This document shows, in pieces, positions 24,507-64,000 of a stretch of DNA of 64,000 bases. Position numbers and translations under genes: made by a program. This DNA is from Clostridia bacterium (GTDB taxonomy: Bacteria > CBDUZB01 > JAGLHV01). Numbering within the stretch: position 1 is the first letter of the stretch; every line of letters begins with the position of its first letter. Below the pieces are notes generated by a model. The model did no database searches. It was not told the DNA's origin and was given only the letters and a program-made list of their open reading frames with translations. The stretch lies in contig JAUVLC010000001.1 in assembly GCA_030595925.1 (NCBI GenBank), positions 1,476 to 65,475 on the forward strand. Reading direction: 5' to 3'.

Positions 24507-25382
24507 TTAAACAAAATTGATAAAAGGACATATTCTTACCGGCTCTTGCAAATCTTTCCTATATCTATTCTTTACCACATTTATAAATTCTATATCACTG
24601 TCAACTTTAGTAAACGGAACATCAAAAGCACAATAAGACACCTCTCCCCAGGAATTGATAAAAATTAAACTTCTCCCTCTTTCACAATACGGAACTAGTT
24701 CTGAAAAGGGATAAATAAAAGGTTTTATGCAATTATCTATATTTATTTTTGAAAAAGTTTCAAAGGATATAAAGTAATTTTTTATTTTTGATAGGAATTC
24801 AATTAACTCTTCTTTGGTAAAATCTAATTGGACCAATTTGGGAACAATTAAATATATTGAGTCAACATTAGGCGACATATTCTTGATTAAATCAACACCT
24901 ATTTTTAATACCTGCTTGGTCAAAAGCAAATTTATATTTACCACTTTTACATAATTTTTTAATTTTATTATAGCTTTTAGAAAAGATTTTATGTTATTAT
25001 TTATATCAACCTTGTATTCATCAAAGGAAAGAGAAACTAAATCACAATATTTAAATATTTTCCCTTCAAAATTGATTATATTTTCATAATTGGTAGTTAT
25101 AGAAAATTTTATTTTTTTCACCCTGGCTAATTTACTTAATACTTTAAGAAAAACAAGGTTTTTATCGCTTATATTTTTTTTATCGATATAATTTACTGAC
25201 ATGGCAATTTCTTTTATTCCTAATACAGGTAAAGAATTAATAATTGATTCAAAAAAATATATACTTTTTTCTGCTTTTTTATTTATTTTGCGGAATTTAA
25301 TATAACAAAACGGACATTCTTTCATACAATCAGCAGTAGGATGTAAAGAAAGTATCGATGGAAATTGAGAAGGCATATTCAT
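24507..25382 (-). CDS. radical SAM domain protein of unknown specificity
   Basis: CxxxCxxC near the N-terminus (ADCMKECPFC); 291 aa; sits at the core/island boundary. Confidence 0.5.
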   Translation of the reverse strand: MNMPSQFPSILSLHPTADCMKECPFCYIKFRKINKKAEKSIYFFESIINSLPVLGIKEIAMSVNYIDKKNISDKNLVFLKVLSKLARVKKIKFSITTNYENIINFEGKIFKYCDLVSLSFDEYKVDINNNIKSFLKAIIKLKNYVKVVNINLLLTKQVLKIGVDLIKNMSPNVDSIYLIVPKLVQLDFTKEELIEFLSKIKNYFISFETFSKINIDNCIKPFIYPFSELVPYCERGRSLIFINSWGEVSYCAFDVPFTKVDSDIEFINVVKNRYRKDLQEPVRICPFINFV

Positions 25383-25388
25383 CTCCTT

Positions 25389-25697
25389 TAGAGCTAAGAG
25401 CTAAGAGCTAAGAGCTAAGAGCTAAGAGCTGAGAGCATAGAGCTAAGTGCTAAGTGCTTAGAGCTAAGAGCAAAGAGCTAAGAGCTAAGTGCTAAAAGCT
25501 AAGAGCTTAGAGCTAAGAGCAAAGAGCTAAGAGCAAAGAGCTAAGTGCTAAGTGCTTAGAGCTAAGAGCAAAGAGCTAAGAGCTAAGAGCTAAGAGCAAA
25601 GAGCTAAGAGCAAAGAGCTAAGTGCTAAGTGCTTAGAGCTAAGAGCAAAGAGCTAAGAGCTAAGAGCTAAGAGCTGAGAGCATAGTGCTAAGAGCTT
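25389..25697. repeat. AGAGCWW heptamer tandem array (~44 units)
   Basis: Direct read: agagcta agagcta ... agtgcta agagcaa agagctt; period 7. Confidence 0.9.
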
Positions 25698-26298: not shown

Positions 26299-26499
26299 TT
26301 AAATATTAGAATTCTGATTTTTTATCCATTCCGCAACAAATCGATTCATTTTAAGTCTCGTCTCTTCATTTCTCGGTTCAAAAGAAAATTGTTCTAAAAT
26401 ATCTTTCATAATCTGTTTTTTAAACTTTTCCACTTCCGAAGGCAAAGTTAAAACAAATTCAGCATCTGACTCATCAAAAACGATATATTCTTCCATCAT
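26299..26499 (-). CDS. hypothetical small acidic protein
   Basis: 66 aa ORF with an AAGGAAAGGA RBS; no recognisable domain. Confidence 0.3.
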   Translation of the reverse strand: MMEEYIVFDESDAEFVLTLPSEVEKFKKQIMKDILEQFSFEPRNEETRLKMNRFVAEWIKNQNSNI

Positions 26500-26517: not shown

Positions 26518-26951
26518 AAGCTTAGAGCTAAGGGCTTAGAGCTAAGGGCATAGAGCTAAGAGCTAAGTGCTAAGGGCTAAGAGCTAAGGGCTGAGAGCTA
26601 AGAGCATAGAGCTAAGAGCATAGAGCTAAGAGCATAGAGCTAAGAGCTTAGAGCTAAGAGCAAAGAGCTAAGAGCTAAGTGCAAAGAGCTAAGAGCTTAG
26701 AGCTAAGAGCTAAGAGCATAGAGCTAAGTGCTAAGAGCTAAGAGCAAAGAGCTAAGAGCTAAGAGCTAAGAGCATAAAAGCAAAGAGCTAAGAGCTAAGT
26801 GCAAAGAGCTAAGTGCAAAGAGCTAAGAGCGTAGAGCATAGTGCTAAGAGCTTAGAGCTTAGAGCTAAGAGCAAAGAGCTTAGAGCTAAGAGCATAGAGC
26901 GTAGAGCTAAAAGCTAAGAGCTTAGAGCTAAGTGCTAAGAGCATAGAGCTT
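26518..26951. repeat. AGAGCWW heptamer tandem array (~61 units)
   Basis: Longest AGAGCTA-type array in the window; degenerate units AGAGCTA/AGGGCTA/AGAGCAT/AGTGCAA. Confidence 0.9.
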
Positions 26952-27235: not shown

Positions 27236-27667
27236 TTATTCCAACTCTAACTTTTTAAAACGTTCTGAATCCACAGATGCATCTAAGTCCTTTATTTCTT
27301 CGTCTTTAGTTGAACTACATTTTTCTTCTTGTTTTGTTAAAACTTTTGTTTCCCTTGAAGGAGATTTAATAGTAAAAGCCTTTCCCTCTAAGTTAATAGT
27401 CACTTTACGGTCATCTATTTTAAATATTTCTAATTCCGGAAAATGATACTGCTTTTTTATCTGATAAATAAGTTCTATAAAAGAAAGTATATTTTTCCCC
27501 CCAAATAAATCCTCACGGTCTTTATCCAATCTAAAAGGGGAATTACTTTCGATTACATATACTTTTATTAAGTGACTTAAAATCTCTACTAATTCATCTC
27601 TTTCTAAATTTTGAAGAGACTTAACTATTTCCTGCTTTACTTTCTGATTTTGATTTAATGGTTCCAT
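27236..27667 (-). CDS. hypothetical protein (last gene of the 28795->27236 operon)
   Basis: 143 aa; RBS AAAGGA; no domain recognised. Confidence 0.45.
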   Translation of the reverse strand: MEPLNQNQKVKQEIVKSLQNLERDELVEILSHLIKVYVIESNSPFRLDKDREDLFGGKNILSFIELIYQIKKQYHFPELEIFKIDDRKVTINLEGKAFTIKSPSRETKVLTKQEEKCSSTKDEEIKDLDASVDSERFKKLELE

Positions 27668-28360: not shown

Positions 28361-28795
28361 TTAATCCTGCTTCTCAACTTCTGTGACAGTAGATTTACCA
28401 ACGACTTTCGATTTTTTCTCGTTAATTCCCTGATTTTCAAAAATAGTAGCCATATTTATATCAATAGGTTGCCCACACTTCTCACAAGATACTTTTTCCA
28501 TTGTATCTCCCTTGCTATTTATCCTGGAATGAAAATCCTGTAAATAATTAAGATCTGCAAGAAAAAGTTTTTCTATTACTTCCGAAGTTATTTCGGTCAA
28601 AGGACCCAATTTAGTTATAATTCTGGAAAGCAGAAGTATTGGATAATAATCTTCATTTCTTGCTATTCTTTGATCGTTAGATACTTCTATCTCATCTTTA
28701 GCATTAACTAACCTCATACACCCTTTTCGATAAAGCCTTCCACTCTCATCCCTATAACCAATTGGGAGTACAAAATCAAATTCTGTCTGTAACAT
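28361..28795 (-). CDS. hypothetical protein with a C-terminal zinc-ribbon (CEKCGQP)
   Basis: 144 aa; conserved leader AAAACGAAAGGAGG upstream; tightly coupled to the pentapeptide-repeat gene. Confidence 0.45.
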   Translation of the reverse strand: MLQTEFDFVLPIGYRDESGRLYRKGCMRLVNAKDEIEVSNDQRIARNEDYYPILLLSRIITKLGPLTEITSEVIEKLFLADLNYLQDFHSRINSKGDTMEKVSCEKCGQPIDINMATIFENQGINEKKSKVVGKSTVTEVEKQD

Positions 28796-28930
28796 TTTTC
28801 TATTACCTCCTTTCGTTTTTAAGCTAAGAGCTAAGAGCTAAGAGCTAAGAGCTTAGTGCAAAAAGCTAAGAGCAATCTAAACCCGCATTTTTTTATCCTG
28901 TATCATGTATCATGTATCATGTATCATGTA

Positions 28931-29137
28931 TCATGTATCATGTAATTTGGACTGATTTTCCTGTTCTACTTCCTCTTCATAAAACTCAGAAGTTTTTTCT
29001 CTTTCCACTACCTCTCCCATCGCTCCTTCTAAAAACTTAGAAAAATCAAGACATTTCTTACCTTTCACCCCTTTAACATGAATTGTTATTTCTCCTTCCG
29101 GAGAAATACTAATTTCCATTTCTTTTTTCATGACCAT
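28931..29137 (-). CDS. DUF2997-like small protein
   Basis: 68 aa; MEISISPEGEITIHVKGVKGKKCLDFSKFLEGAMGEV...EFY fits the DUF2997 pattern; overlaps the DUF1257 gene by 10 nt. Confidence 0.55.
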   Translation of the reverse strand: MVMKKEMEISISPEGEITIHVKGVKGKKCLDFSKFLEGAMGEVVEREKTSEFYEEEVEQENQSKLHDT

Positions 29138-29532
29138 TTCCTCACTACCAATTTTATAGTTTGATCTTCTTCTACTTTATCCTCTACTAAGGTAAAACCC
29201 TGTTTTTTGACCTCACTGCTAACTTTGTTATAGGCATAGCGTTGCCTTAATTTCTGCATAAATTCTTCCTGCTTAAATCCAGCATGTGATTCTACTCCCC
29301 ACCAGTCAGCAAAAACTTCACACATACCTCCATCCTTTACTTTAACGCCTATGTCGTAAGAACTTTTGGTATCAATTTTCAAATCCGCTTCCTCTTGATT
29401 TCCATTCCAGCCTCGTACATAAACTTTGGCTTTATCCTTGCCTTCTGTATATTTATACCCTAATTCTTCTATCGTCTTCTTTAAACAAACCAAATCATTA
29501 ATTTTTGTATCTACTTTGGTAAAATGAGACAT
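29128..29532 (-). CDS. DUF1257 (Ycf35-like) protein
   Basis: MSHFTKVDTKINDL...VRGWNG...YDIGVKV...ADWWGV are hallmarks of DUF1257; RBS GGGAGG supports the start at 29532 (the track's extension to 29577 reads through the heptamer array). Confidence 0.65.
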   Translation of the reverse strand: MSHFTKVDTKINDLVCLKKTIEELGYKYTEGKDKAKVYVRGWNGNQEEADLKIDTKSSYDIGVKVKDGGMCEVFADWWGVESHAGFKQEEFMQKLRQRYAYNKVSSEVKKQGFTLVEDKVEEDQTIKLVVRKWS

Positions 29533-29707
29533 AAAAATTTTCCTCCCTTTTTTCACGATACACGATTCAAGATACATGATACAAACAAATTATTAGTGGT
29601 AGCCGCAGGCTTCAGCCTGCGTTTCCTTATGGTCATTGCTAATAGCTAAGAGTATTTCAAATTAACCTATATTCTATAATTCTATATCCTGTATCCTGTA
29701 TCGTGAA

Positions 29708-31261
29708 CTATATTTCCAATTTCCGGGAACTTTTTTCCGTATCTTTAACTATATCCATAGACGCTCTTCTTGCCCTGGTCTTTGCCCATTCCCGTATAGC
29801 TTTAATTTCTCTTTCCATTGTCTGAGAAAGAGGAATTAATTCATTAGCACTGTGAATTACCAGGTCTGTATTAATATCTGTATTTGATTCAAAAGCATCG
29901 TATAGAGCGGATATTATCACTTCTTCAATTTCCGAACCACTATATCCTTCTGTATCTTGAGCTATTTTTTCAATATCAAAATCCTGGGGATTTCTTTTCC
30001 TTTTCTGAATATGAATACGAACAATTTCTTTTCTTTCCTCAAAATCAGGTAAATCTACATAAAAAATCTCATCAAAACGACCTTTACGCAGTAATTCCGG
30101 TGGAAGTAAACTAACATTATTAGCAGTAGCTACTACAAAAACAGGGCTATTCTTTTCTTGCAGCCAGGTAATAAAACTGCCAAAAACCCTTGCGGTTGTT
30201 CCGGCATCTGAAAAAGAAGAACTTTGAGTTCCGGAAAAACCCTTTTCCAACTCATCCATCCATAGAATAGATGGGGCAACGGCTTCCGCAGTTTTAATTG
30301 CTTTTCTCATATTTTCTTCCGAAGAACCGACTAACCCGGCAAATATCTTTCCTACATCTAAACGCAACAGGGGTAATTGCCACAAATTACCTACAGCTTT
30401 AGCAGTGAGAGACTTCCCACAGCCGGGTATACCGATAAGTAAAATTCCCTTGGGCTGGGGAAGACCAAATTCTCTGGCCCGCATAGTAAAAGCTAAACCT
30501 CTTTTTCGCAGCCATTGTTTTAATTCTCCTAACCCTCCCACATCATCAATTTTTTCGTTCGCATTGTAAAATTCTAAAATCCCTGATTTTCTAATTATCT
30601 GTTCTTTTTCCGAAAGAATTACATCGATATCAAACTGTCCCTTCTTTACTAACGATTTGGCAAAAACACTTTCTGCCTCGTTGGCAGTCAATCCCAAAGC
30701 TGCTTTTACAATCCGCTCTCTTTGATTTTTATTAAGAGTAGTTTCTACCTTCGAATTATTAGGTAAAGATTTTAATATTCCATCAATAATTTGATTTAAT
30801 TCCTCTGCAGCCGGTAAATTATAATCCACCACGACAATCTCTTTCTCCAACTCAGCAGGAATTTTAAGCAAAGGAGAAAGAAAGATTAAGTTTTTATAAC
30901 TATTTTTTAAAAGCCTATTAACATCCCTTAACCTTCGCACAACTACCGGATCTTTAAAATACGGATGAAAATCACGAAAAACGAAAATTGCATTTTCTTT
31001 TGAATTAATCACTAATTCCAAAGCTTTCAGGGGATCTTTTAAATCCGGTGATTCATTTTTTATTCCGGTAATTCCTTCAGTAATCGACCAACAAATTAAT
31101 TTCTTTTCCCGCTTAAAAGCAATTTGCCTCAGGGTATTTTCTACCCGCATTTCTTCACAGGATAATAAGTATATTAAAGGATACCGTGCTCTAATCAAAC
31201 ACTCAATTTCTTCCAGTATTTTGTTATTGTCCTCTTTATCATGTTTAAATTTTCCCTCCAC
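29708..31261 (-). CDS. AAA+ ATPase (CDC48/FtsH-like single AAA module)
   Basis: Walker [10 protein letters not shown], Walker B ILWMDELE and SRH region; probable GTG start at 31261 with RBS AGGAGAGG; either the partner of DUF1257/DUF2997 or an eCIS Afp15-like assembly ATPase. Confidence 0.8.
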
Positions 31262-31328
31262 ATTCCTCTCCTTTCTTTCACGATACACGATACATGATTC
31301 ACGATACATGATACAAACAAATTATAAA

Positions 31329-31397
31329 CTGGTAGCCGCAGGCTTCAGCCTGCGTAATTTCTCCCATACAAACGCAACCTAAAGGTTGCGGCTACCA
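31329..31397 (+). repeat. three-way-junction hairpin element (GGTAGCCGC...GCGGCTACC)
   Basis: An outer 9-bp stem GGTAGCCGC/GCGGCTACC encloses hairpins GCAGGCTTCAGCCTGC and GCAACCTAAAGGTTGC; the related core GGTAGCCGCAGGCTTYAGCCTGCG occurs at 26165, 29597, 32731, 34346 and 38617, and inverted at 43823, 44896 and 57698. Confidence 0.6.
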
Positions 31398-31521
31398 CTC
31401 TAATAATCTGAAATCTGTAATCTATAATTTTTTTATCCTGTATCCTGTATCATGTATCCTGTATCATGTATCTTGTATCATGTATCCTGAATCTTGCATC
31501 CTGTATCCTGTATCGTGCATA

Positions 31522-32661
31522 TCATGTATCGTGAAAATATTTACAAAAAATACATTCATCCCAGTCTTTTTTCATCCATCTACCACATTTATCACATCTT
31601 ACCCTTGTAGAAGGCGCACCTAAAATTTCTATATCCTCAATTCTTCTTTGACGTAAGACAAACCAACCTATTAAGATTAAAACGATAATTATACCCATTA
31701 CTATTAGAAGTACAACCCACTTTGATATAGGCACAACCGTTGCAATAAAATTTTTAGTATCGCTTATGGTTTTTCCCTTATATTTTGTTTTTATAGTTAA
31801 TTGATGCAAGCTATCATCCGGTTCAATTTTAGCAGCTTTAAATTCAATTATGTAGTTTTTTTCTATTTGAGATAGCATTTTCTGCAAAATACCGGATATC
31901 ATAGTTGATTTTTTGGCTTTAAGATATAGTCCCCCCGTAGCTTTAGACATTTTTTCAAGATTTCTTAAGTCTTTTGTACCTAACAGAGAATAGCCTATTG
32001 TGTAAATAGGTATATTATGAGTTTTTGCTTCTTTTATTACTTCACTAAATGTTATCTTACTGCCGGTATCTCTCCCATCCGATATAATAATTACTGCCCG
32101 TCTTAAAGGCAGGTTTAAATCTTCTTTTAAAAGGATTTTTGCCTGCCACACCGCATCATATAAAACCACCGTACTACCCATCACTTTAAGTTTACTAATT
32201 TTGTCCTTTCTCTTTTCGCTATCAGCAGTAAACCCGGATATTGTTTTTACATGATCACCAAATGCAAGAACGGCAATTTTATTTTTGGCGTTTAATTTGG
32301 AAATAAAATTAACAACCGCTCTTTTTTCGTCATTTAAAGGTTTACCTTTTAATATCCCATTAGCACTCATCACCACTACAATAGACACACCCTCATCTTT
32401 AAATTGAAATCCTTCTACATTTATTTTTTTCCCTCCGGGTGTCCCATCCTCGAGCATCTTAAAATCATCTTTAGACAAAGTGGTTACCGCCTTATGCTGA
32501 CCATCAGCTACCGTAACATACGCTTTAACCTTTGGAAATTGGGAAGAATTTACCTGATCTATTCTTAAATAAGGACCCGCACCCATAGCAATATTAGACT
32601 TAAGAATTATTCCTAATATTGTCAAATATAATATCTGCTTTTTTAAAACCCCACCAAACAT
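31522..32661 (-). CDS. von Willebrand factor A (vWA) domain protein with a TM segment and C-terminal zinc-ribbon
   Basis: Signal peptide; vWA MIDAS-type region (VVVMSANGIL...ISDGRDTG...IPIYTIGYS); a TM helix near residue 310; C-terminal CDKCGRW...CIFC. Confidence 0.7.
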   Translation of the reverse strand: MFGGVLKKQILYLTILGIILKSNIAMGAGPYLRIDQVNSSQFPKVKAYVTVADGQHKAVTTLSKDDFKMLEDGTPGGKKINVEGFQFKDEGVSIVVVMSANGILKGKPLNDEKRAVVNFISKLNAKNKIAVLAFGDHVKTISGFTADSEKRKDKISKLKVMGSTVVLYDAVWQAKILLKEDLNLPLRRAVIIISDGRDTGSKITFSEVIKEAKTHNIPIYTIGYSLLGTKDLRNLEKMSKATGGLYLKAKKSTMISGILQKMLSQIEKNYIIEFKAAKIEPDDSLHQLTIKTKYKGKTISDTKNFIATVVPISKWVVLLIVMGIIIVLILIGWFVLRQRRIEDIEILGAPSTRVRCDKCGRWMKKDWDECIFCKYFHDT

Positions 32662-32874
32662 ATTTAATCCCTCCTTTTATGAGCTAAGAGCTTAGAGCAA
32701 AGAGCTTAGAGCATACTGCTTGAAGCACATAGGTAGCCGCAGGCTTTAGCCTGCGATTCTTTTTGATCATTGCTAATAGTTAAAAATATTTTAACCCAGT
32801 CTAAAATCTGCAATTTGTAATTATTTTTTATCATGAATCTTATATCTTGTATCATGTATTTCCTTCTAAGTTGT

Positions 32875-33105
32875 TTACTTTACGCTCTTAGTTTTTTATT
32901 CTTTATTCTTTTACTCTAAGCTCTTAGCTCTTAGCTCTTAGCTCTTAGCTCTATGCTCTTAGCTCTAAACTCTTTGCTCTAAGCTCTACGCTCTAAGCTC
33001 TACGCTCTTAGCTCTATGCTCTTAGCTCTATGCTCTAAGCTCTTAACTCTAAGCTCTGCACTCTATGCTCTATGCTCTATGCTCCTTAGCTCTATGCTCC
33101 TCACA
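32875..33105. repeat. TAGCTCT (reverse-orientation AGAGCWW) heptamer array
   Basis: ctcttag ctcttag ctctatg ctctaag ...; preceded by the junction motif TTTCCTTCTAAGTT. Confidence 0.9.
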
Positions 33106-33487
33106 AACACTTAAACTTAAACTCTATATCCCCCAATTTAACAATATCATTATCTATAATTTGTTGTTCTCTAATTTGAGTACTATTTACAAAAGAACCT
33201 GTCGGAGAATCAAGGTCTACAATATGAAACTCCCCGTTATCATAAGTAATCTTAGCATGCTGTTTACCGATAGACTCATCATTAATAATTACATTCGAAT
33301 CAACAATAGATTTTCCAATAATATTTTTTCCATCCCGAAGTCTAAAATCCTGTCCTTTAAATTTTCCCTCTAAAGCAACTATCCACCCTACCACCGGACG
33401 AAGACAATTAGGACATACATCCCAGGAACGATGCATCAAATGCTGCTCCACCCTCCCATTACAAAACTTTTTACTAAATAATCGCAT
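33101..33487 (-). CDS. FHA-domain protein with an N-terminal zinc-ribbon
   Basis: 128 aa; CPNCLRP followed by an FHA fold (IIGKS...VIINDESIGKQHAKITYDNGEFHIVDLDSPTGSFVN); conserved leader AAAACGAAAGGAGG. Confidence 0.7.
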   Translation of the reverse strand: MRLFSKKFCNGRVEQHLMHRSWDVCPNCLRPVVGWIVALEGKFKGQDFRLRDGKNIIGKSIVDSNVIINDESIGKQHAKITYDNGEFHIVDLDSPTGSFVNSTQIREQQIIDNDIVKLGDIEFKFKCL

Positions 33488-33694: not shown

Positions 33695-33744
33695 TATATT
33701 GAAATATGAAATTCATATATTCAAATTATCTCAGGAGGTTAACC

Positions 33745-34014
33745 ATGTTAAGAAAATTAGGACAAAGTTATCAAATCGCTTTACCAAAACAGATTATAAA
33801 AGAACTTGGACTTAAAGTAAATGACTATTTAGATGTAATTACAAAAGATAACAAAATCATTATTGAACCAAAAGTCTTAATTCCCAAAGAACAAGCCTAT
33901 TTCTATACCCCTCACTGGCAAAAGGGTGAAAAAAAAGCTAGTAAAGATATTAAAAAAGGTCGTGTTACCAAAACAAAGAACTTAAAAGAGCTATTTAAAA
34001 AATTGGATAAATAA
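33745..34014 (+). CDS. AbrB/MazE/SpoVT-family antitoxin
   Basis: MLRKLGQSYQIALPKQIIKELGLKVNDYLDV swapped-hairpin beta-barrel signature; AGGAGG RBS; the start sits 39 nt inside the ORF-track call. Confidence 0.6.
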   Translation: MLRKLGQSYQIALPKQIIKELGLKVNDYLDVITKDNKIIIEPKVLIPKEQAYFYTPHWQKGEKKASKDIKKGRVTKTKNLKELFKKLDK

Positions 34015-34017
34015 CCT

Positions 34018-34275
34018 ATGCATATAGAAGCAACTGCTACTTTTACAAAGCTTTATAAAAAATTACCTTCTAACATTAAAGAGAAAGTAAAAAAAGCTTT
34101 AAAACTTTTACAAAACAATCCCTCTCATCCTTCTTTACGACATAGAAAAATAGCCGGTCAATATGACATCTTTGAAATAAGCATAACAATGAACTATAGA
34201 ATAACCTACCAAAAAATTAGAGAAATAGCTTACCTTAGAAAAATAGGCACACATGATATTTTGAACAAACCCTAA
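34018..34275 (+). CDS. RelE/ParE-family toxin
   Basis: 85 aa; its start lies 3 nt after the antitoxin stop; C-terminal pattern RHRKIAGQYDIFEISITMNYRITYQ...IAYLRKIGTHD is typical of RelE/ParE. Confidence 0.55.
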   Translation: MHIEATATFTKLYKKLPSNIKEKVKKALKLLQNNPSHPSLRHRKIAGQYDIFEISITMNYRITYQKIREIAYLRKIGTHDILNKP

Positions 34276-34770: not shown

Positions 34771-35616
34771 TCATTGAAACAACTCCTCAACCATCAGCAT
34801 ATTAGTTCCGTGTGTATGCCACCCTGCTGTACACTCAGTTGCATGGTTATTCTTAACCTGTACATCTATAGTATGCTCACCAGCAGAAATATCCGGAACC
34901 AAAATCATATGGGAAGCAAAATTCATAGACCAGTTTACACCAATAACACCAGTGCCGCCACTAATATAAAGAACCCCATCTCCATCAATTCTTACTCGCC
35001 AATCAGAGGCAGCGAAGGCTGAACTTCCTCCTTGATAGTGACCCAAACAATCATAATAAACTATTCTAAGTACTGAATTATCGTATTTTTTAGTAAAGTT
35101 TAAAATTCTATCCGGATAGGTCGTCCAACTTGTGGGAGTAAGTCGGTTATCAGGCATCCCTTTCATATAAGTAATGTGACTTTTGGGTTTTTCCGAATGT
35201 TCGGCTTTTTCCGAATATAAAGAATATGCTACCCCGGTTAATTCTTCTCTGGGTTTAAGTATTGTTGTCTCTTCTATAATAATCTCTAAATAATATGTTG
35301 CTTCATTCCATTCAATATCCGATAATGATTTGTTACTACCCAATTGATAATTAAATAAACCATTATTTATCAAAACATCCTGCTGTTCACTGTTCCAAAT
35401 AGAATTTCCCCCTGCAGCAACATTATAAATCTTAAACTCTATTGTTTTTGTTCCGTTAACCGGCTCTCCATTTTCTTTCAATTTACCCTGATAATTAATC
35501 TTTCCCGGCAAGCCAGCAAAGAGCAAAGAGCTTTGAGCATAGAGTAAAAAGCAAAAAGCTAAGAGCATTGAGCGTAGAGTAAATGATACGATCCCCTTAA
35601 ACAAAATTTTCTTCAT
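34771..35616 (-). CDS. secreted tail-fibre/adhesin-like protein (paralog of 42723..43661)
   Basis: Signal peptide encoded by the AGAGCWW array; the N-terminal ~120 aa are nearly identical to 42723..43661 (GLPGKINYQGKLKENGEPVNGTK...NGLFNYQLGSNKSL...PREELTGVAYSL). Confidence 0.5.
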   Translation of the reverse strand: MKKILFKGIVSFTLRSMLLAFCFLLYAQSSLLFAGLPGKINYQGKLKENGEPVNGTKTIEFKIYNVAAGGNSIWNSEQQDVLINNGLFNYQLGSNKSLSDIEWNEATYYLEIIIEETTILKPREELTGVAYSLYSEKAEHSEKPKSHITYMKGMPDNRLTPTSWTTYPDRILNFTKKYDNSVLRIVYYDCLGHYQGGSSAFAASDWRVRIDGDGVLYISGGTGVIGVNWSMNFASHMILVPDISAGEHTIDVQVKNNHATECTAGWHTHGTNMLMVEELFQ

Positions 35617-35753: not shown

Positions 35754-36317
35754 TCACCTGATTATCATTATCCTTCCTTTTCTCTTCTCTCCCTGATTAT
35801 TAGTAATTACATATATATACACCCCACTAGAAATATCCTTTGACTTGTCCCACCGATACCTGCCATCTCCATCTGTTTCTTCCAATTCACAAACCTTCTC
35901 TCCCGAAATAGTATAAATTTTAATTTTGGCATAGGGGGTCAGATTGGTAAAAGTAATGCAGGAATGCTTACCGGGTTTAAAAGGAACCGGATAGGCAAAT
36001 ACCTGGTCTAAATTATTTTTCACTGAATCTATATCCCCGGACAAAGATTCCTGACTTACTCCCAAAAAACCCAGAGATAACTCGTAATTCCCTCCATAAA
36101 AAGTACCAACTCCCCCTGGCTGGCCAAAAGAACTTACCAGCTCAAAATCACCCCCTTTTAAAGCAGCAAGACTTCCACTGGCAATAACAGAACTCTCAAT
36201 GGAATAATCCCCACCGGTCAAAGACCATATCAACCCAGCAACTAAAAATAAAAACAACAATACATTTACCACGACTCTACTAATTTTCCCTACCCGAACA
36301 CAACTTGATTTAAACAT
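35754..36317 (-). CDS. small secreted protein with a T9SS-type C-terminal sorting domain
   Basis: The C-terminal ~80 aa (FAYPVPFKPGKHSCITFTNLTPYAKIKIYTISGEKVCELEETDGDGRYRWDKSKDISSGVYIYVITNNQGEKRKGRIMIIR) resemble a Por-secretion CTD and are ~85% identical to the C-terminus of 51716..53698; the start is refined to MFKSS (RBS AAAAAGGAGGG). Confidence 0.6.
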   Translation of the reverse strand: MFKSSCVRVGKISRVVVNVLLFLFLVAGLIWSLTGGDYSIESSVIASGSLAALKGGDFELVSSFGQPGGVGTFYGGNYELSLGFLGVSQESLSGDIDSVKNNLDQVFAYPVPFKPGKHSCITFTNLTPYAKIKIYTISGEKVCELEETDGDGRYRWDKSKDISSGVYIYVITNNQGEKRKGRIMIIR

Positions 36318-36364
36318 TTTCCTTCCCTCCTTTTTTTCATGATTCAAGATACACAATACATGAT

Positions 36365-36757
36365 TCACGATGTAAAGATATTATGTTTCTCCTGAACCGA
36401 CTTAGTAAAATTATAAAGCTTGGCACCTAACTCCTTATAACATTCGTAAAGTTCATTAAATATGGACATAGCTAATGATCCTGTTTCACATAAAAGTTCA
36501 AGATGTACTTTTGTTTCATCACAAGAAGCAATAGCATAAACTAAATATTGAATAAATTCATTTCTATGGCGTCTTCGCCCAAATCCTTCAACAATGTTAG
36601 AAACAATTGATTTAGAAGATCGTCGAATTTGACTTCCCTCTTCATACATTTCAAATTTAGGAATATCTTTCAGTGTCATTTTATGTATTTTTACAGCATT
36701 TTCTTTTGCTAATTGATATATCTCTAAATCCCTATAAGACATTGGCTTTTTACTCAT
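36365..36757 (-). CDS. four-helix-bundle protein (23S rRNA intervening-sequence protein family)
   Basis: MSYRDLEIYQLAKENAVKIHKMT...FPK.E.Y...SQIRRSSKSIVSNIVEGFGRR matches the TIGR02436-type family; RBS GGAGGG. Confidence 0.8.
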   Translation of the reverse strand: MSKKPMSYRDLEIYQLAKENAVKIHKMTLKDIPKFEMYEEGSQIRRSSKSIVSNIVEGFGRRRHRNEFIQYLVYAIASCDETKVHLELLCETGSLAMSIFNELYECYKELGAKLYNFTKSVQEKHNIFTS

Positions 36758-36945
36758 CACCACCCTCCGTCAATCCATCCTGCATCCTGTATCGTGTATC
36801 CTGTATCCTGTATCATGAATCTTGTATCCTGCATCCTGTATCCTGTATCATGAATCTTGTATCCTGTATCCTGTATCCTGAATCCTGAATCGTGTATCCT
36901 GTATCGTGTATCCTGTATCCTGTATCATGAATCTTGTATCCTGTA

Positions 36946-38454
36946 TCATATTTCCTGATAAAACCATAATTTCGCCATATTATCCCTGGTACCGGAAATC
37001 CATTTTTGAGAAATCTTTAGAGTATCTGATTTGATATACTGAGCATCTACAATATAATACCAGTTTCTCCAACGATTTTTTGTATCCCTTCCCCTTATTG
37101 ATAAATCTCCTGTTTTCTTCCCATTGACCGATATTTCTATATTTAAATCTCCGTAAAAATAATCAAACCTGCGAATAAAAAGCAACTCCCTGTTAGGAAC
37201 AACATTTTTAATCGTCCATTCAGTAGTTCCTTCAATATACCCCTTTACTATACCTTCTACTTTTTTTCCATCAGGATAAGTAAAACTTTGCCTTCCTGTA
37301 AACTGGTCTTTAGCATCTATTACTTTAAAATTATGTTGTTTTTCAGAATTTTTTTCAGCAAAATCAATTACATCAATCTTAGTATATTTCTTATCTCCGA
37401 CTATTAAAGTCCTGGGCAAATCCTGACTCATCATTTTAATATCATTCAAACCAAGACGCTTTGTTAATAACATAGTCTTTATCAAATCCATAGCTTCTAC
37501 CTGAGTTCTAAGTAACAATTCTAAATCTTCCAAACTATCACTGTACTTTGCAACAAATTCAGAAAGTTGCTGGACTTTTGCTTTATAATCTCCAAAAATA
37601 GACATAGTCGAATATTCCCACTGAGGTAATTTTTTTTCAGCTTCGATAATTTCCCTTACAATTTTATTATCTATCTCCACAATAGGTCTTATCATTTCTA
37701 TCATCTGAGAAACATTCAGACTTCCTCCGCGAACCAACATCAAAGATGTAATCGCCGTAATTTGTAAATCTCTTATGGAAGAAAGAGGCATTTCTCCTTC
37801 TACTAACATCATTGTATTTTTTGTCCTGTCTAATGTATGTATTACTTGCTTTTTTAAATAAGGAGACAAAGTAGGTATCGCCATTTTTACCCATGGAACA
37901 AAACGAAGATCTATTTCATTAACCCCTGGTTTCATAGAGTCTTTTACCTCACTTATAATTATCTTACCTTCTTTATCCTGTTCTAAATAAATACGCGCAA
38001 GCTCTATAGCTTTCATAGAATCCGGGACAGTAGCAGTTATTTCGATTTTAGAAGACTCTAAACTTTTCCTATAGCCCTGGTATTTAGGATTGGCTTCATT
38101 TACAAAAAAATCAACCGGTGTTTCTATAAATTCAATAGTAACATAAAGAAGACGAGGAAGTTTATATTTTTGTAATTCAATATTTTTTATTACCGATTCA
38201 TGTAAAAATATATCATTCCCTTCTCCATCAATAGCATATCCGGAAGCAATTTCCACAGTCAAACCCTCCCCTTTCTGATGACTGGAAACTTTTAACTCCC
38301 CCTCATATCCAGGCACAATCCCATAACCATAAAAAATTCTATTCTGCAATTTCCTCTTTTCAATGTGATAACCATGAGCCTCACTCCAATGATTTTCTGT
38401 GGCTACCAACCCTTTAAAAAAATTTGCCCGTTTAAAACCTTTTAATTCTTCCAT
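36946..38454 (-). CDS. hypothetical 502-aa protein (possible structural component)
   Basis: Long ORF with an RBS-like leader and no recognisable motif; a fragment of the 4HB gene's 3' end lies upstream. Confidence 0.45.
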   Translation of the reverse strand: MEELKGFKRANFFKGLVATENHWSEAHGYHIEKRKLQNRIFYGYGIVPGYEGELKVSSHQKGEGLTVEIASGYAIDGEGNDIFLHESVIKNIELQKYKLPRLLYVTIEFIETPVDFFVNEANPKYQGYRKSLESSKIEITATVPDSMKAIELARIYLEQDKEGKIIISEVKDSMKPGVNEIDLRFVPWVKMAIPTLSPYLKKQVIHTLDRTKNTMMLVEGEMPLSSIRDLQITAITSLMLVRGGSLNVSQMIEMIRPIVEIDNKIVREIIEAEKKLPQWEYSTMSIFGDYKAKVQQLSEFVAKYSDSLEDLELLLRTQVEAMDLIKTMLLTKRLGLNDIKMMSQDLPRTLIVGDKKYTKIDVIDFAEKNSEKQHNFKVIDAKDQFTGRQSFTYPDGKKVEGIVKGYIEGTTEWTIKNVVPNRELLFIRRFDYFYGDLNIEISVNGKKTGDLSIRGRDTKNRWRNWYYIVDAQYIKSDTLKISQKWISGTRDNMAKLWFYQEI

Positions 38455-38689: not shown

Positions 38690-39132
38690 TTCTTTATCCT
38701 GTATCCTGTATCCTGAATCCTGAATCGTGTATCCTGTATCGTGTATCCTGAATCCTGTATCTTGAATCTTGTATCGTGAATCCTGTATCCTATAATCCTG
38801 TATCGTGTATCCTGTATCCTATATCCTATAATCCTGTATCGTGTATCCTGTATCCTATATCCTATATCCTATATCCTATATCCTATATCCTATATCCTAT
38901 ATCCTGTATCCTATATCCTATATCCTATATCCTATATCCTGTATCCTGTATCCTGTATCGTGAATCATGTATCTTGTATCTTGTATCTTGTATCTTGAAT
39001 CTTGTATCGTGAATCCTGTATCCTATATCCTGAATCCTGAATCGTGTATCCTGTATCTTGAATCTTGTATCGTGTATCCTGTATCGTGTATCCTGAATCA
39101 TGTATCCTGAATCGTGTATCCTGTATCTTGAA
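38690..39132. repeat. ATCNTGW heptamer tandem array (~63 units, longest in the window)
   Basis: atcctgt atcctga atcgtgt ... atcctat x9 ... atcttgt; it spawns the spurious ORFs 38776..39012(+) and 38925..39143(-). Confidence 0.9.
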
Positions 39133-39990
39133 TTATATTTCATTTTCCCCTATAACCATTTCCTTTACTTTTTCTTTTTTCTCTTCTTCAGAAACAGCGA
39201 AAATAAGAAAATATTTAGTATGAGCCGGTTTCTCAGTACGAATTATTTCATGAATCTTTTTTATAGTATAATCATCCACCTTTTTTACAGGTAAAGGAAC
39301 TTTAACCGTAAAACAATGGGCTAAATCCACTTTTTCTTCAATAATACTATCCATTCCCACCAGTGAGCCTACTCCAATCTCAAAATCCTTAAAAGGAAAA
39401 TGGTGCTCTATGATTTCAGGTTCTACACCGGTAATTATTTTTAAATAAAGTTTTAATCCTCTTAACGTTCCTCTCCACTTATAAATCTCCACCGCATTTT
39501 TTATTAATTTCCTTTTCTTTTCTTCTGTCCAGTTCTCATCCAAAACCATAGCCATCCACGAAGCAAGCCAGGGAAGAAAAACAGAAGGTGCATAATAAGG
39601 ATGAAAATAGGTATGTATATTATCGAGTTTTTCCTGAACACCAGAAAGCAAATGTTGAAAAATCCACAGATAATCCTTTAGAAAATTCTTTCCGTTAAAT
39701 TTTTGCTCGTGAAATATTGCCGGCAACCAGTCAAGATAACTTTTCCGACAAATAGTAACATCTATTGTTTTATCTAAATTTACTTTCTCTCCAACCTCTG
39801 GTTTCTGCCTAAGCACAGTATTTATTACCCGATGACTTTCCTCATAATAAACATCACCCAGCTTAAAACCGGCATTGTTCATCACCTTTTTTGCCCGTTC
39901 CAAAGACAAATTAATCAGATTAGGAACAATTACCTTTTCTTTTTTAAAGTCCTTTTTTGAAATATTTACTGCTATAGCCATTTTATTCAC
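39133..39990 (-). CDS. PASTA-domain protein with a phage P2 gpI-like tail/baseplate domain
   Basis: N-terminal PASTA-like segment (VIVPNLINLSLERAKKVMNNAGFKLGDV...IDVTI); the C-terminus (WRGTLRGLKLYLKIITGVEPEIIEH) is reminiscent of the tail protein I family; tentative. Confidence 0.35.
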   Translation of the reverse strand: MNKMAIAVNISKKDFKKEKVIVPNLINLSLERAKKVMNNAGFKLGDVYYEESHRVINTVLRQKPEVGEKVNLDKTIDVTICRKSYLDWLPAIFHEQKFNGKNFLKDYLWIFQHLLSGVQEKLDNIHTYFHPYYAPSVFLPWLASWMAMVLDENWTEEKKRKLIKNAVEIYKWRGTLRGLKLYLKIITGVEPEIIEHHFPFKDFEIGVGSLVGMDSIIEEKVDLAHCFTVKVPLPVKKVDDYTIKKIHEIIRTEKPAHTKYFLIFAVSEEEKKEKVKEMVIGENEI

Positions 39991-59347: not shown

Positions 59348-59968
59348 TTAATAAAGCGGTGGTATTTTCAATCGTCTACCTGGCTTTATATTCATTGGAT
59401 CATCAATACCATTAGCATCAGCAATGACCCTCCATTTATTGGGGTCATCATATTCTTGAGCAGCAATCGTAGTCAAATTTTCTCCTTGTTTTATAGTTCT
59501 TCTTTTGGTATGGTCAGCAGAATGTCTGGGTTTTTCCTGCATTTGACTATAGGCAGTACTATACTCTTTAAAAAGTACCTTTAAGGTTGCTCTTACAGGA
59601 GTTCCATCGTTTAAAAACATAGTAAATCTTGCCACCATATCTTCTAAGACACATTTAAATTTTAATTTGCCCCAACTAAAAAGACACAAAGGAGGCCTGT
59701 GTTGGTCCGCATTAACCATCATTAACTCCTCAATCTTTTTAGTATAATTCCTCACATCCGTCCGTTCTTCAGAGGTATCAAAAAACAATTCCATAGAAAG
59801 TTTTTTTCTTTCCCCGGTAGTAAACTCCACCGCCGGAGAATCTAAACCCTGAATCTGATGTTCCTTCCAGGGGGTTTTCTTTTCAACTACATATTCCTTA
59901 GGGTTAAAAAGAACTTTAATCTCCTCATTGGTATCTAAATTAGTTATAGTTGCTTTTTCAAGAGCCAT
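59348..59968 (-). CDS. LysM-domain tail protein (tube-initiator / P2 gpX-like)
   Basis: N-terminal tube-like domain (IKVLFNPKEYVVEKKTPWKEHQIQGLDSPAVEFTTGERKKLSMELFFD) plus a C-terminal LysM (RTIKQGENLTTIAAQEYDDPNKWRVIADANGIDDPMNIKPGRRLKIP); start MALEKATI with RBS AAAGGAGG. Confidence 0.55.
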   Translation of the reverse strand: MALEKATITNLDTNEEIKVLFNPKEYVVEKKTPWKEHQIQGLDSPAVEFTTGERKKLSMELFFDTSEERTDVRNYTKKIEELMMVNADQHRPPLCLFSWGKLKFKCVLEDMVARFTMFLNDGTPVRATLKVLFKEYSTAYSQMQEKPRHSADHTKRRTIKQGENLTTIAAQEYDDPNKWRVIADANGIDDPMNIKPGRRLKIPPLY

Positions 59969-60127
59969 ATTTATAGCCTCCTTTCTTTCACGATACAAGA
60001 TTCATGATTCACGATACAGGATTCAGGATACAGGATTCAGGATACAAGATTCAAAATCCAAGATCCACGATTCAGGATTCAGGATACAAGATATAAAATA
60101 CAGAATGCAGAATTCAGGATGCAGGAT

Positions 60128-63935: not shown

Positions 63936-64000
63936 ATTTACTATCTCATATGTAGGTTTTTTATGTATATTTGAATAGGCGGGAAATTCTTCACCTTTTT

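Follow-up and report, generated by a model that had tools for sequence, protein, structure and literature searches.

A Ycf46-family AAA+ ATPase with DUF1257 and DUF2997 partner genes at the distal end of a contractile injection system locus

The stretch of DNA considered here, referred to below as the window, comprises 64,000 nucleotides of contig JAUVLC010000001.1 from a Clostridia bacterium (assembly GCA_030595925.1, positions 1,476 to 65,475 of the forward strand). Its GC content is ~33% and nearly all of its genes lie on the minus strand. Our subject is a group of five adjacent genes encoding, from upstream to downstream, a zinc-ribbon FHA protein, a membrane-spanning vWA protein, an AAA+ ATPase and two small proteins with the Pfam domains DUF1257 and DUF2997 (Table 1); the last three are called the trio. 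An earlier note on this DNA had listed these genes and their domains, and all five are borne out on the minus strand, every Pfam match standing above the gathering score (E 1e-11 to 1e-29).

The group adjoins a contractile injection system (CIS). A Pfam scan of the window open reading frames (ORFs) places CIS genes upstream of it, at 39133-63785: a PASTA + Tail_P2_I fusion, PAAR, Baseplate_J, gp25 and a GPD hub, together with two Phage_base_V spike proteins, a CIS_tube + LysM initiator and two eCIS_core (DUF4157) proteins. Baseplate, spike, PAAR, hub, LysM tube initiator and eCIS_core/DUF4157 genes are thus all present, at 39133-62631, as in systems of the extracellular type (eCIS). No sheath, tube or DUF4255 terminator gene was found among the scanned window ORFs of at least 100 amino acids; such genes are present in relatives of the locus (L004, L005 and L097 of the comparison set described below) and probably lie beyond position 64000 here. 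Below ~25400 are the housekeeping genes RimP, NusA, IF2 and RbfA, on to AlaRS. Having CIS genes on one side and housekeeping genes on the other, the five-gene group is placed at the distal end of the CIS locus, and that locus is a CIS with an ATPase module different from the known Afp15 type.

Table 1. Positions of the five genes, their spacers and the associated conserved genes in the window
Feature	Position	Strand	Observations
p502, no Pfam match	36946..38454	-	homologues at 700-855 bits
Zinc-ribbon + FHA protein, 128 aa	33101..33487	-	Pfam FHA E 8e-14, Yop-YscD_cpl 1e-12
FHA-vWA spacer	32662..33100		CTCTAAG x26 at 32914-33099, GAGCTAA at 32681-32712, hairpin 32738-32755
vWA protein, 379 aa: signal/anchor, beta domain, vWA, beta domain, transmembrane helix, zinc ribbon	31522..32661	-	Pfam VWA E 1.3e-11
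vWA-AAA spacer	31262..31521		TATCCTG and CACGATA arrays, two hairpins
Ycf46-family AAA+ ATPase (by sequence), 517 aa	29708..31261	-	GTG start; Pfam AAA E 4.5e-29 + AAA_lid_3
AAA-DUF1257 spacer	29533..29707		hairpin CGCAGGCTTCAGCCTGCG, few heptamers; about two 14-nt units at 29552-29584
DUF1257 (Ycf35-like), 134 aa	29128..29532	-	Pfam PF06868 E 1.5e-22
DUF2997, 66 aa (68 aa from upstream ATG at 29137)	28931..29131	-	Pfam PF11211 E 7e-17
DUF2997-p144 spacer	28796..28930		TATCATG x7, AGCTAAG x7
p144, conserved CxxC protein, possible tail-assembly chaperone	28361..28795	-	homologues in CIS loci
Pentapeptide-repeat protein, 225 aa	27680..28357	-	Pfam Pentapeptide E 6.7e-27
p143, conserved, no Pfam match	27236..27667	-	homologues in metagenome loci, L001, L017
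p66, small conserved ORF, no Pfam match	26299..26499	-	homologues always near pentapeptide gene

The longest ORFs of the ATPase and DUF1257 genes (29708-31309 and 29128-29577) begin with extra codons that are translated heptamer repeats, so that the real starts lie later: a GTG at 31261 for the ATPase, and the MSHF start at 29532, with GGGAGG as Shine-Dalgarno sequence ahead of it, for the DUF1257 protein. The exact 517-residue ATPase and 134-residue DUF1257 products are on record in NCBI. Like other Ycf46-family proteins, the ATPase consists of a collinear N-terminal region and a single AAA module, some 500 residues in all. It is collinear with a Ycf46-like ATPase of Acaryochloris marina over 503 amino acids (residues 16-496, 37% identity, E 2e-125). 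With Afp15 of pADAP, BLASTP aligns 188 residues of the AAA core (274-460, 28% identity, E 5e-11), and the homology to Afp15/Pvc15 does not extend to the N-terminal region or the degenerate D1 domain. Full-length collinearity with the Acaryochloris protein, as against a core-only match to Afp15, identifies the enzyme, at the level of sequence, as a member of the Ycf46 family and not an Afp15 orthologue. Homologues of 506-549 amino acids are 60-67% identical to it across phyla and carry the JGI label SpoVK/Ycf46/Vps4; the best relative in the genome collection is 63% identical.

The catalytic motifs of classical-clade AAA+ enzymes, namely Walker A (GxxGxGK[ST]), Walker B (hhhhDE), the sensor-1 Asn and the Arg fingers, are all preserved, and the sequence LLRKGRFDE is conserved family-wide. 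Pore loop 1 reads GLVGSSE, with Leu where the K-[YWF]-x-G pattern has an aromatic residue. Among the members listed, nearly all of the clade associated with the trio and with CIS have (S/G)LVGSSE with Leu or Ile, L014 having Tyr; the loop is K[YF]VGESE in cyanobacterial and Bacillus Ycf46-like proteins and KYIGETE in Afp15. A search of PDB sequences gave the D2 domains of CDC48, p97 and VAT as the best-matching solved structures (E 1e-58 to 1e-60). The description of the ATPase as CDC48-like, proposed in the earlier note, therefore holds for the AAA core but not beyond it, where the protein is of the Ycf46 type. No other Afp15-like AAA protein was found in the window or in any of the related CIS loci. 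The further suggestion that the trio might be a module in addition to being an eCIS ATPase is favoured by this and by the position of the gene before a Pvc16_N gene in one clade (see below), but fails if taken to mean that the enzyme is an Afp15 orthologue. In phage records the two families fall in different phage groups: distant homologues of the ATPase in mycobacteriophages and Rhizobium phages, DUF1257 in cyanophages.

Both small proteins match their Pfam models closely, as had been supposed: when the HMM check was run, each scored above threshold over the whole model, DUF1257 with 80.2 bits (gathering threshold 22.2, model positions 2-103) and DUF2997 with 61.4 bits (threshold 24.1, positions 2-47 of a 47-residue model). 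The N-terminal MSHF is invariant across 40 DUF1257 homologues. DUF1257 is confidently modelled (pLDDT 91) as a beta-alpha-beta4-alpha2-beta2 fold, whose best structural neighbours are KA1/TBP-like interaction domains (Z ≤7) and from which an enzyme signature is absent; the model is that of a non-enzymatic interaction fold. The low-confidence AlphaFold2 model of DUF2997 is a beta-hairpin followed by a helix and a disordered acidic tail. As modelled, the two proteins would be suited to adaptor or cofactor roles. The DUF1257 stop codon and the DUF2997 start codon overlap (ATGA), which suggests translational coupling. The JGI name of the window DUF2997 protein, 'flagellar hook-basal body complex protein FliE', is unsupported by any match that we obtained.

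The earlier note had stated that DUF1257 and DUF2997 genes recur next to such an ATPase. We examined the neighbourhood from two sides. The ATPase-side sample comprised 80 genome loci plus loci from exact-protein look-ups (numbered with the prefix L), annotated by iterated hidden Markov models built from the window proteins; for the DUF1257 side, metagenomes were scanned with a DUF1257 profile. In the metagenomes the ATPase is directly upstream of DUF1257 in 44 of the 45 loci with enough sequence, and DUF2997 directly downstream of DUF1257 in all of 78. Among CIS-free genome loci with a close ATPase relative both DUF genes are found in 15/17, at least one of them no more than 1 kb from the ATPase gene. 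Of the two exceptions, L006 is a genuine solo, and the other sequence stops 2 nt past the ATPase gene. The adjacency is thus recurrent from either side, and the trio is a conserved module. More widely, DUF2997 and/or DUF1257 lie in the fetched stretch for 24 of 33 ATPases scoring at least 600 bits (~55% identity or more), and with 1 of 40 scoring below 440 bits (cyanobacterial Ycf46, Bacillaceae, Methylococcales). AAA-DUF1257-DUF2997 is a near-invariant operon, and the linkage is confined to one DUF1257 subfamily and one ATPase clade.

Within CIS loci the trio families occur in the window, L001, spirochaete-type loci and a soil clade; L090, a fragmented assembly, has the gene order of the window and L001. 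In ten loci of the soil clade a Pvc16_N gene directly follows DUF2997, and the order AAA-DUF1257-DUF2997-Pvc16_N is found wherever the sequence reaches far enough, as in L097: eCIS_core ... [p66, p143, pentapeptide] AAA - DUF1257 - DUF2997 - Pvc16_N ... gp19 tube. This arrangement mirrors afp15-afp16 of pADAP with two DUF genes inserted. No Pvc16_N gene was found in the window. In the spirochaete loci the ATPase gene lies between the GPD hub gene (with a radical-SAM gene) and VgrG or DUF2997. The full spirochaete-type order is that of L010, other loci of this type having part of it: DUF1257 - Tail_P2_I - p502 - FHA - vWA - sheath - tube - CIS_tube - GPD - NrdG-like 4Fe-4S - AAA - DUF2997 - p144 - pentapeptide - p66 - p144 ... 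eCIS_core.

Several arrangements are found where no CIS gene is detectable within 8-10 kb. One, of Myxococcota type, begins with an STK-STAND-TPR protein (STK, Ser/Thr kinase), a vWA (YfbK-like) or BatD-like protein and a canonical FHA + coiled-coil protein of ~700 amino acids, and ends with AAA - DUF1257 - DUF2997 and a conserved protein of ~250 amino acids. A second has pentapeptide and p143 genes divergent from the trio, then an FHA-lytic-transglycosylase fusion; a third consists of Band7/SPFH, the trio and an NHL+TPR propeller. On the Pseudanabaena galeata plasmid pPg_01 (L093, 129817-137974) the order is GrpE, Hsp70, DUF1257, an ABC/SMC-type ATPase, a hypothetical protein, DUF2997, a Ycf46-type AAA and a WD40 propeller; this set stands among toxin-antitoxin and restriction genes and resembles a chaperone-based defence or conflict island. 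A Bacillus cereus plasmid carries an NrdG-like 4Fe-4S protein, an HhH protein, AAA and DUF2997. In a rough neighbour-joining tree without support values, all CIS-embedded ATPases belong to the same half of the clade, where two CIS-free groups are interspersed among them.

A small NrdG-like 4Fe-4S/radical-SAM gene directly precedes the ATPase gene in the spirochaete CIS loci L004 (5413-5967), L005 (7402-8004), L087 (19363-19971) and L094 (6059-6700). On the Bacillus cereus plasmid the NrdG-like gene stands two genes ahead of AAA-DUF2997, and its product is a homologue of the spirochaete protein (34% identical, E 4e-36). Taken with the cyanobacterial cluster in which adjacent DUF2997 and ycf35 genes accompany fed7 (PMC4284462), these neighbours make an iron-sulfur protein a recurrent companion of the trio families. 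One of the loci, L087 (Treponema succinifaciens plasmid pTRESU01, 166 kb, 41563-77285), has its ATPase gene amid repeated VgrG/Pvc8 or baseplate-V genes, with a polymorphic-toxin (type 44) gene after one spike gene and ankyrin and YARHG genes nearby, a layout equivalent to a T6SS-like array of spike-effector cassettes (T6SS, type VI secretion system).

The module in the window reaches downstream to 26299 and includes p144, pentapeptide, p143 and p66 genes, homologues of which accompany the trio in CIS and CIS-free loci alike. In many metagenome loci a p143 homologue stands next to the pentapeptide gene, alongside the trio, and p66 homologues are found in L001, L004, L005, L010, L031 and the soil CIS clade. 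The p144 protein has a C-terminal CxxC; two paralogues are present in the spirochaete-type loci L005, L007 and L010 and a fused pair in L004. The window copy has no Pfam or PHROG match. Within its family, 3/11 members weakly match Gp41_Mu (best E 3.5e-4) and 1/11 matches Phage_TAC_7 (E 0.15), the window copy matching neither, and a search of PDB sequences with the p144 profile returned nothing meaningful. An Afp16-like terminator was considered for p144 and rejected (hhalign probability 0.2%). Further upstream, the order Tail_P2_I - p502 - FHA - vWA recurs in eight loci (L003, L005, L010, L011, L013, L014, L020 and L022). Two extra genes stand between p502 and FHA in L001, and L004 has a cut-off p502 fragment; in the window the two genes are separated by an insert consisting of a ParE/MazE pair, two secreted proteins and a 23S-IVS-type protein.

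The layouts that the earlier note had read in the two upstream proteins, signal, transmembrane helix and CxxC...CxxC in the vWA protein and a zinc ribbon in the FHA protein, are present and conserved in homologues. The vWA protein has an N-terminal hydrophobic signal/anchor, a transmembrane helix at about residues 312-337 and a cytoplasmic CDKC...CIFC zinc ribbon; in the FHA protein an N-terminal C..H..CPNC ribbon precedes the FHA domain, and C..H..CPxC is kept in 10 homologues. In all ten CIS loci that hold the pair it stands beside baseplate genes. The small zinc-ribbon FHA family as a whole has G-x-G, without the Arg of the GR that phosphothreonine-binding FHA domains carry; the window copy reads GK..., GKQH for SRxH, the Ser-Arg being lost, and VN. 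When the vWA protein is aligned with 10 CIS-locus homologues, the family has [FML]S[ANS][NG]G (MSANG in the window) for the DxSxS of the metal ion-dependent adhesion site (MIDAS), and retains SDGRD, the transmembrane helix and C(P)xC...C(P/I/V)FC. Pfam gave no kinase or phosphatase match (Pkinase, PP2C) for the window ORFs that were scanned. In CIS-free trio loci, by contrast, the long FHA proteins have the canonical residues (IGR..VSRVHA..TNGT) and are encoded beside Ser/Thr kinases. A T6SS-like FHA/vWA switch, as had been suggested, is less well supported than the module: the pair is conserved beside baseplate genes, but the phosphothreonine-binding Arg and the MIDAS are missing, and neither kinase nor phosphatase was found in the scanned ORFs. 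Because of these absences we read the pair as phospho-independent scaffolds, the FHA protein cytoplasmic and the vWA protein membrane-spanning, with both genes linked to those of the baseplate. A literature search yielded nothing specific on FHA, vWA or zinc-ribbon proteins in CIS.

Repeat spacers had been reported between all five genes. Arrays of 7-nt tandem repeats do occur between FHA and vWA, between vWA and AAA and on either side of the group, but the AAA-DUF1257 spacer holds about two 14-nt units, and DUF1257 and DUF2997 overlap. A hairpin, CGCAGGCTTyAGCCTGCG, occurs at the FHA-vWA, vWA-AAA and AAA-DUF1257 junctions. The TATCATG array also encodes the last DUF2997 codons, and other arrays give false N-terminal extensions of ORFs. 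Heptamer arrays are present in almost every spacer from 25390 to 64000, with up to ~60 copies (for example 25390-25696, 26519-26950, 36777-36947 and 38695-39127), the units being AGCTAAG/CTCTAAG and TATCnTG/CAnGATA in both orientations, with a recurring hairpin GGTAGCCGCAGGCTTyAGCCTGCG alongside. No 7-nt arrays of these units were found in the housekeeping part (1-25000). In L001, whose proteins are ~94% identical, the arrays are almost gone, down to 4-5 copies, and the FHA-vWA spacer is 139 nt. Since the repeats fill spacers throughout the locus and are nearly absent from L001, they are a property of the locus in this genome and not of the five genes. Rfam gave nothing in the spacers. Among published repeats that we found, the closest analogue is the intergenic direct repeat TAACTGA in marine Beggiatoaceae (PMC4679880).

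Some further features of the locus deserve mention. The Tail_P2_I protein (39133-39990) has an N-terminal PASTA domain, a combination seen again in L003 and L090; PASTA is a peptidoglycan- or muropeptide-binding module. LysM and PG_binding_1 proteins are encoded at 40222-41955, 48606-49445 and 59348-59998. Two in-frame duplications are apparent: a 393-nt unit present twice in tandem (41092-41875) within a 577-residue LysM protein, and a 183-195-nt unit present three times (52663-53596) within an NHL-repeat protein that carries a type IX secretion system (T9SS) sorting domain. Between FHA and the upstream CIS genes, on the plus strand, lie a MazE antitoxin (E 1.6e-11) and a ParE toxin (E 1.4e-5) at 33706-34275, a pair absent from the corresponding position in L001. 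Two secreted paralogues (34771-35616 and 42723-43661) are nearly identical over their first ~40 N-terminal residues, the second matching CTHRC1_C; a protein with a T9SS C-terminal sorting domain is encoded next to them at 35754-36368 and a 23S-rRNA-IVS-type four-helix protein at 36365-36763, both within the insertion that parts p502 from FHA. A radical-SAM gene (24507-25382) with a CxxxCxxC motif lies where the CIS locus gives way to the rimP-nusA-infB operon, a position kept in L001. Its product gave a weak viperin (pVip) match in PADLOC (E 1.9e-6), and the other neighbours of the trio gave none; the possibility that it is the counterpart of the spirochaete NrdG-like 4Fe-4S gene was rejected (E 0.97).

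How might these genes work? In the interpretation to which we give an even chance, the Ycf46-type ATPase replaces Afp15 as chaperone, with two dedicated cofactors, in the assembly and accessory end of the CIS locus. The enzyme would act as a hexamer and take on the Afp15/Pvc15 job, that is, ATP-driven chaperoning of tail assembly and/or cargo loading. DUF1257 (a KA1/TBP-like alpha+beta fold) and DUF2997 (hairpin-helix with acidic tail) would serve as its cofactor or adaptor pair, presumably in a physical complex with it. The p144, pentapeptide beta-helix, p143 and p66 proteins may act with the ATPase on the same substrates, while the zinc-ribbon FHA and vWA proteins, with p502, would connect the machine, on its baseplate side, with the cytoplasmic membrane. 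The Afp15-like role is suggested by the enzyme being the sole Afp15-like AAA protein found in the window and the related CIS loci, by its intact catalytic motifs and by the position of its gene before Pvc16_N in the soil clade and between the hub gene and VgrG or DUF2997 in spirochaete loci. In PMC11495950 and PMC9054023 Pvc15 is reported as a loader of effectors into the tube.

A number of observations weigh against this interpretation. Most trio loci have no CIS gene within 8-10 kb, so that a CIS is evidently no requirement for the trio. DUF1257 lies upstream of Tail_P2_I in the spirochaete loci, apart from the ATPase, and several loci are without a detectable DUF. The sheath, tube and terminator genes of the window locus probably fall outside the window, and the DUF2997 model is low in confidence (pLDDT 65). 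Finally, by sequence, Leu in pore loop 1 replaces the aromatic residue of Afp15 and cyanobacterial Ycf46, and a non-aromatic pore loop 1 argues against processive threading or unfolding by an AAA+ enzyme. Such a loop accords with remodelling or scaffolding, and it favours neither the chaperone interpretation nor the alternative considered next.

That alternative, possible though clearly less probable, holds that the trio is the core of an autonomous NTP-dependent stress or conflict module, which adjoins or gates a CIS in a few lineages, for instance by setting the moment at which a cell turns to making and releasing particles, and is no assembly or loading chaperone. The predominance of CIS-free contexts speaks for it, as do the variable partners, which include STK-STAND-TPR with canonical FHA, the FHA-lytic transglycosylase, Band7/SPFH, the NHL+TPR propeller and a TPR-CHAT protein beside a solo ATPase; on the Pseudanabaena plasmid they are GrpE, Hsp70, an ABC-type ATPase and WD40, among toxin-antitoxin and restriction genes. 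This repertoire mirrors that of vWA-MoxR and related conflict systems (PMC7159879), and all three trio families also occur as PHROG phage families. PADLOC, however, run on ten proteins, assigned no defence system: no model matches either DUF, and the ATPase matches IetA (residues 280-512, E 6e-26) and TRIP13 over the AAA core only, so that an IetAS system, which would pair IetA with an IetS protease, is not indicated. Ten loci have the trio directly ahead of an Afp16-like gene, and spirochaete CIS loci have the ATPase gene amid core genes; such fixed positions suit a structural or assembly role better than a chance association. The enzyme is also the only candidate here for the AAA function which, according to PMC6899500, is present in >85% of eCIS-like loci.

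A broader idea, which we regard as doubtful, is that the trio is the invariant engine of widespread, undescribed modular systems and acts as a CIS commitment device, the cyanobacterial and plastid Ycf46 with Ycf35/DUF2997 being the same machine. Its inputs and outputs would be exchangeable (FHA/Ser-Thr kinase, pentapeptide+p143, beta-propeller, Band7, Hsp70 or a whole CIS), and in CIS loci a cellular signal would be coupled to particle assembly and release. If true, this would give two long-orphan ycf genes a common function.

It is unlikely that the ATPase recycles contracted sheaths in the manner of ClpV while the FHA and vWA proteins form a phosphothreonine-controlled membrane complex of a cell-anchored, T6SS-like CIS. 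In its favour, FHA proteins are well known as regulators of the T6SS, the vWA protein is membrane-spanning, and arrays of VgrG-toxin cassettes surround the ATPase gene on the Treponema succinifaciens plasmid. ClpV is a two-ring Clp/Hsp100 protein, whereas the window ATPase has one AAA ring and a non-aromatic pore loop. In the supplement of Geller et al., FHA is enriched in eCIS loci with an odds ratio of 5.6, yet the FHA family here is without the phosphate-binding Arg, the vWA family without the MIDAS, and no kinase or phosphatase domain appears among the scanned window ORFs. The eCIS_core (DUF4157) genes, moreover, mark the eCIS type, although the Pvc16_N cap gene is found in the soil relatives only. 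Lastly, that the ATPase is an ordinary, diverged Afp15 orthologue with the DUF genes as incidental passengers would suit earlier eCIS surveys, which count any PF00004 AAA as Afp15 or 'ATP supply', but is highly improbable given an alignment with Afp15 of 188 core residues against whole-length collinearity with Ycf46-like proteins, the fidelity of the DUFs to the ATPase clade with or without CIS, and a single DUF1257 among the 22,287 eCIS genes surveyed by Geller et al.

If the chaperone interpretation is correct, the 'Afp15' slot of the CIS field is filled by at least two unrelated ATPase architectures, the second having two obligate small partners and, as accessories, the zinc-ribbon FHA, the vWA protein with transmembrane helix and zinc ribbon, p502, pentapeptide and p143 proteins. 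This bears on the understanding and engineering of assembly and cargo loading in systems other than Afp and PVC. No link of DUF1257 or DUF2997 to an ATPase or CIS was found in the searchable open literature, where five papers mention either domain, and the CIS surveys, as far as term searches of them reach, do not separate ATPase families. Geller et al. interpret vWA as a possible anti-eukaryotic domain in eCIS.

One of the nearest known systems is Afp15/Pvc15 (Cis15). The window enzyme resembles it in being apparently encoded by the single AAA+ gene of a CIS locus, in its classical-clade core with intact catalytic motifs and, in the soil relatives, in the location of the ATPase module directly upstream of the Pvc16_N/Afp16 terminator gene. 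It differs in architecture, with 517 residues and a Ycf46-type N-terminal region compared with the 696 residues and degenerate D1 of Afp15, and in having Leu and not Tyr in pore loop 1; the Afp and PVC loci, moreover, are without the two obligate small proteins found beside the window ATPase.

The threonine-phosphorylation pathway of the T6SS (Fha1/TagH, PpkA/PppA) likewise has a small FHA protein inside a contractile-machine locus. However, the window FHA protein is without the phosphate-binding Arg and Ser, so that its binding is probably phospho-independent, and neither kinase nor phosphatase was found in the scanned ORFs. A further parallel is the inner-membrane component YscD of the type III secretion system, since the protein matches Yop-YscD_cpl. 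The FHA domain of YscD binds in a phospho-independent manner.

The vWA-MoxR and related NTP-dependent conflict systems (Kaur, Burroughs, Iyer and Aravind 2020, PMC7159879) share with the trio loci an AAA+ core accompanied by vWA, FHA, pentapeptide, TPR, beta-propeller, Band7, Hsp70 and STAND-kinase proteins, and partners that swap between related organisms. Unlike theirs, the window ATPase is of the classical clade (CDC48-D2-like) and not MoxR, and the invariant partners of the trio are DUF1257 and DUF2997 and not a vWA co-chaperone; a term search of that paper finds no mention of CDC48 or contractile systems. CDC48, p97 and VAT, hexameric remodellers steered by small adaptors, are the source of the cofactor idea, but the window ATPase has a single AAA ring and an unrelated N-terminal region. 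Its non-aromatic pore loop resembles that of p97 D1 rather than D2.

The likeness to Ycf46 and Ycf35 of cyanobacteria and red-lineage plastids consists in full-length homology of the ATPase to the Ycf46-like one of Acaryochloris and in the same DUF1257 and DUF2997 families. Work on cyanobacterial Ycf46 has treated it as an ATPase linked to stress and to KaiC, without known partners, and in red-algal plastid genomes ycf35 and ycf46 are among four genes that track marine versus freshwater habitat (PMC5940233). The strict linkage outside cyanobacteria gives rise to the testable hypothesis that Ycf35 and DUF2997 are cofactors of Ycf46, all three being still without a mechanism. Yet the sampled cyanobacterial chromosomes keep the ATPase gene apart from the DUF pair, the ATPases there keep the aromatic K[YF]VGESE pore loop, and the context is one of redox and stress (Fed7, the RpaB regulon), compared with the phage-tail machine beside which the trio stands here.

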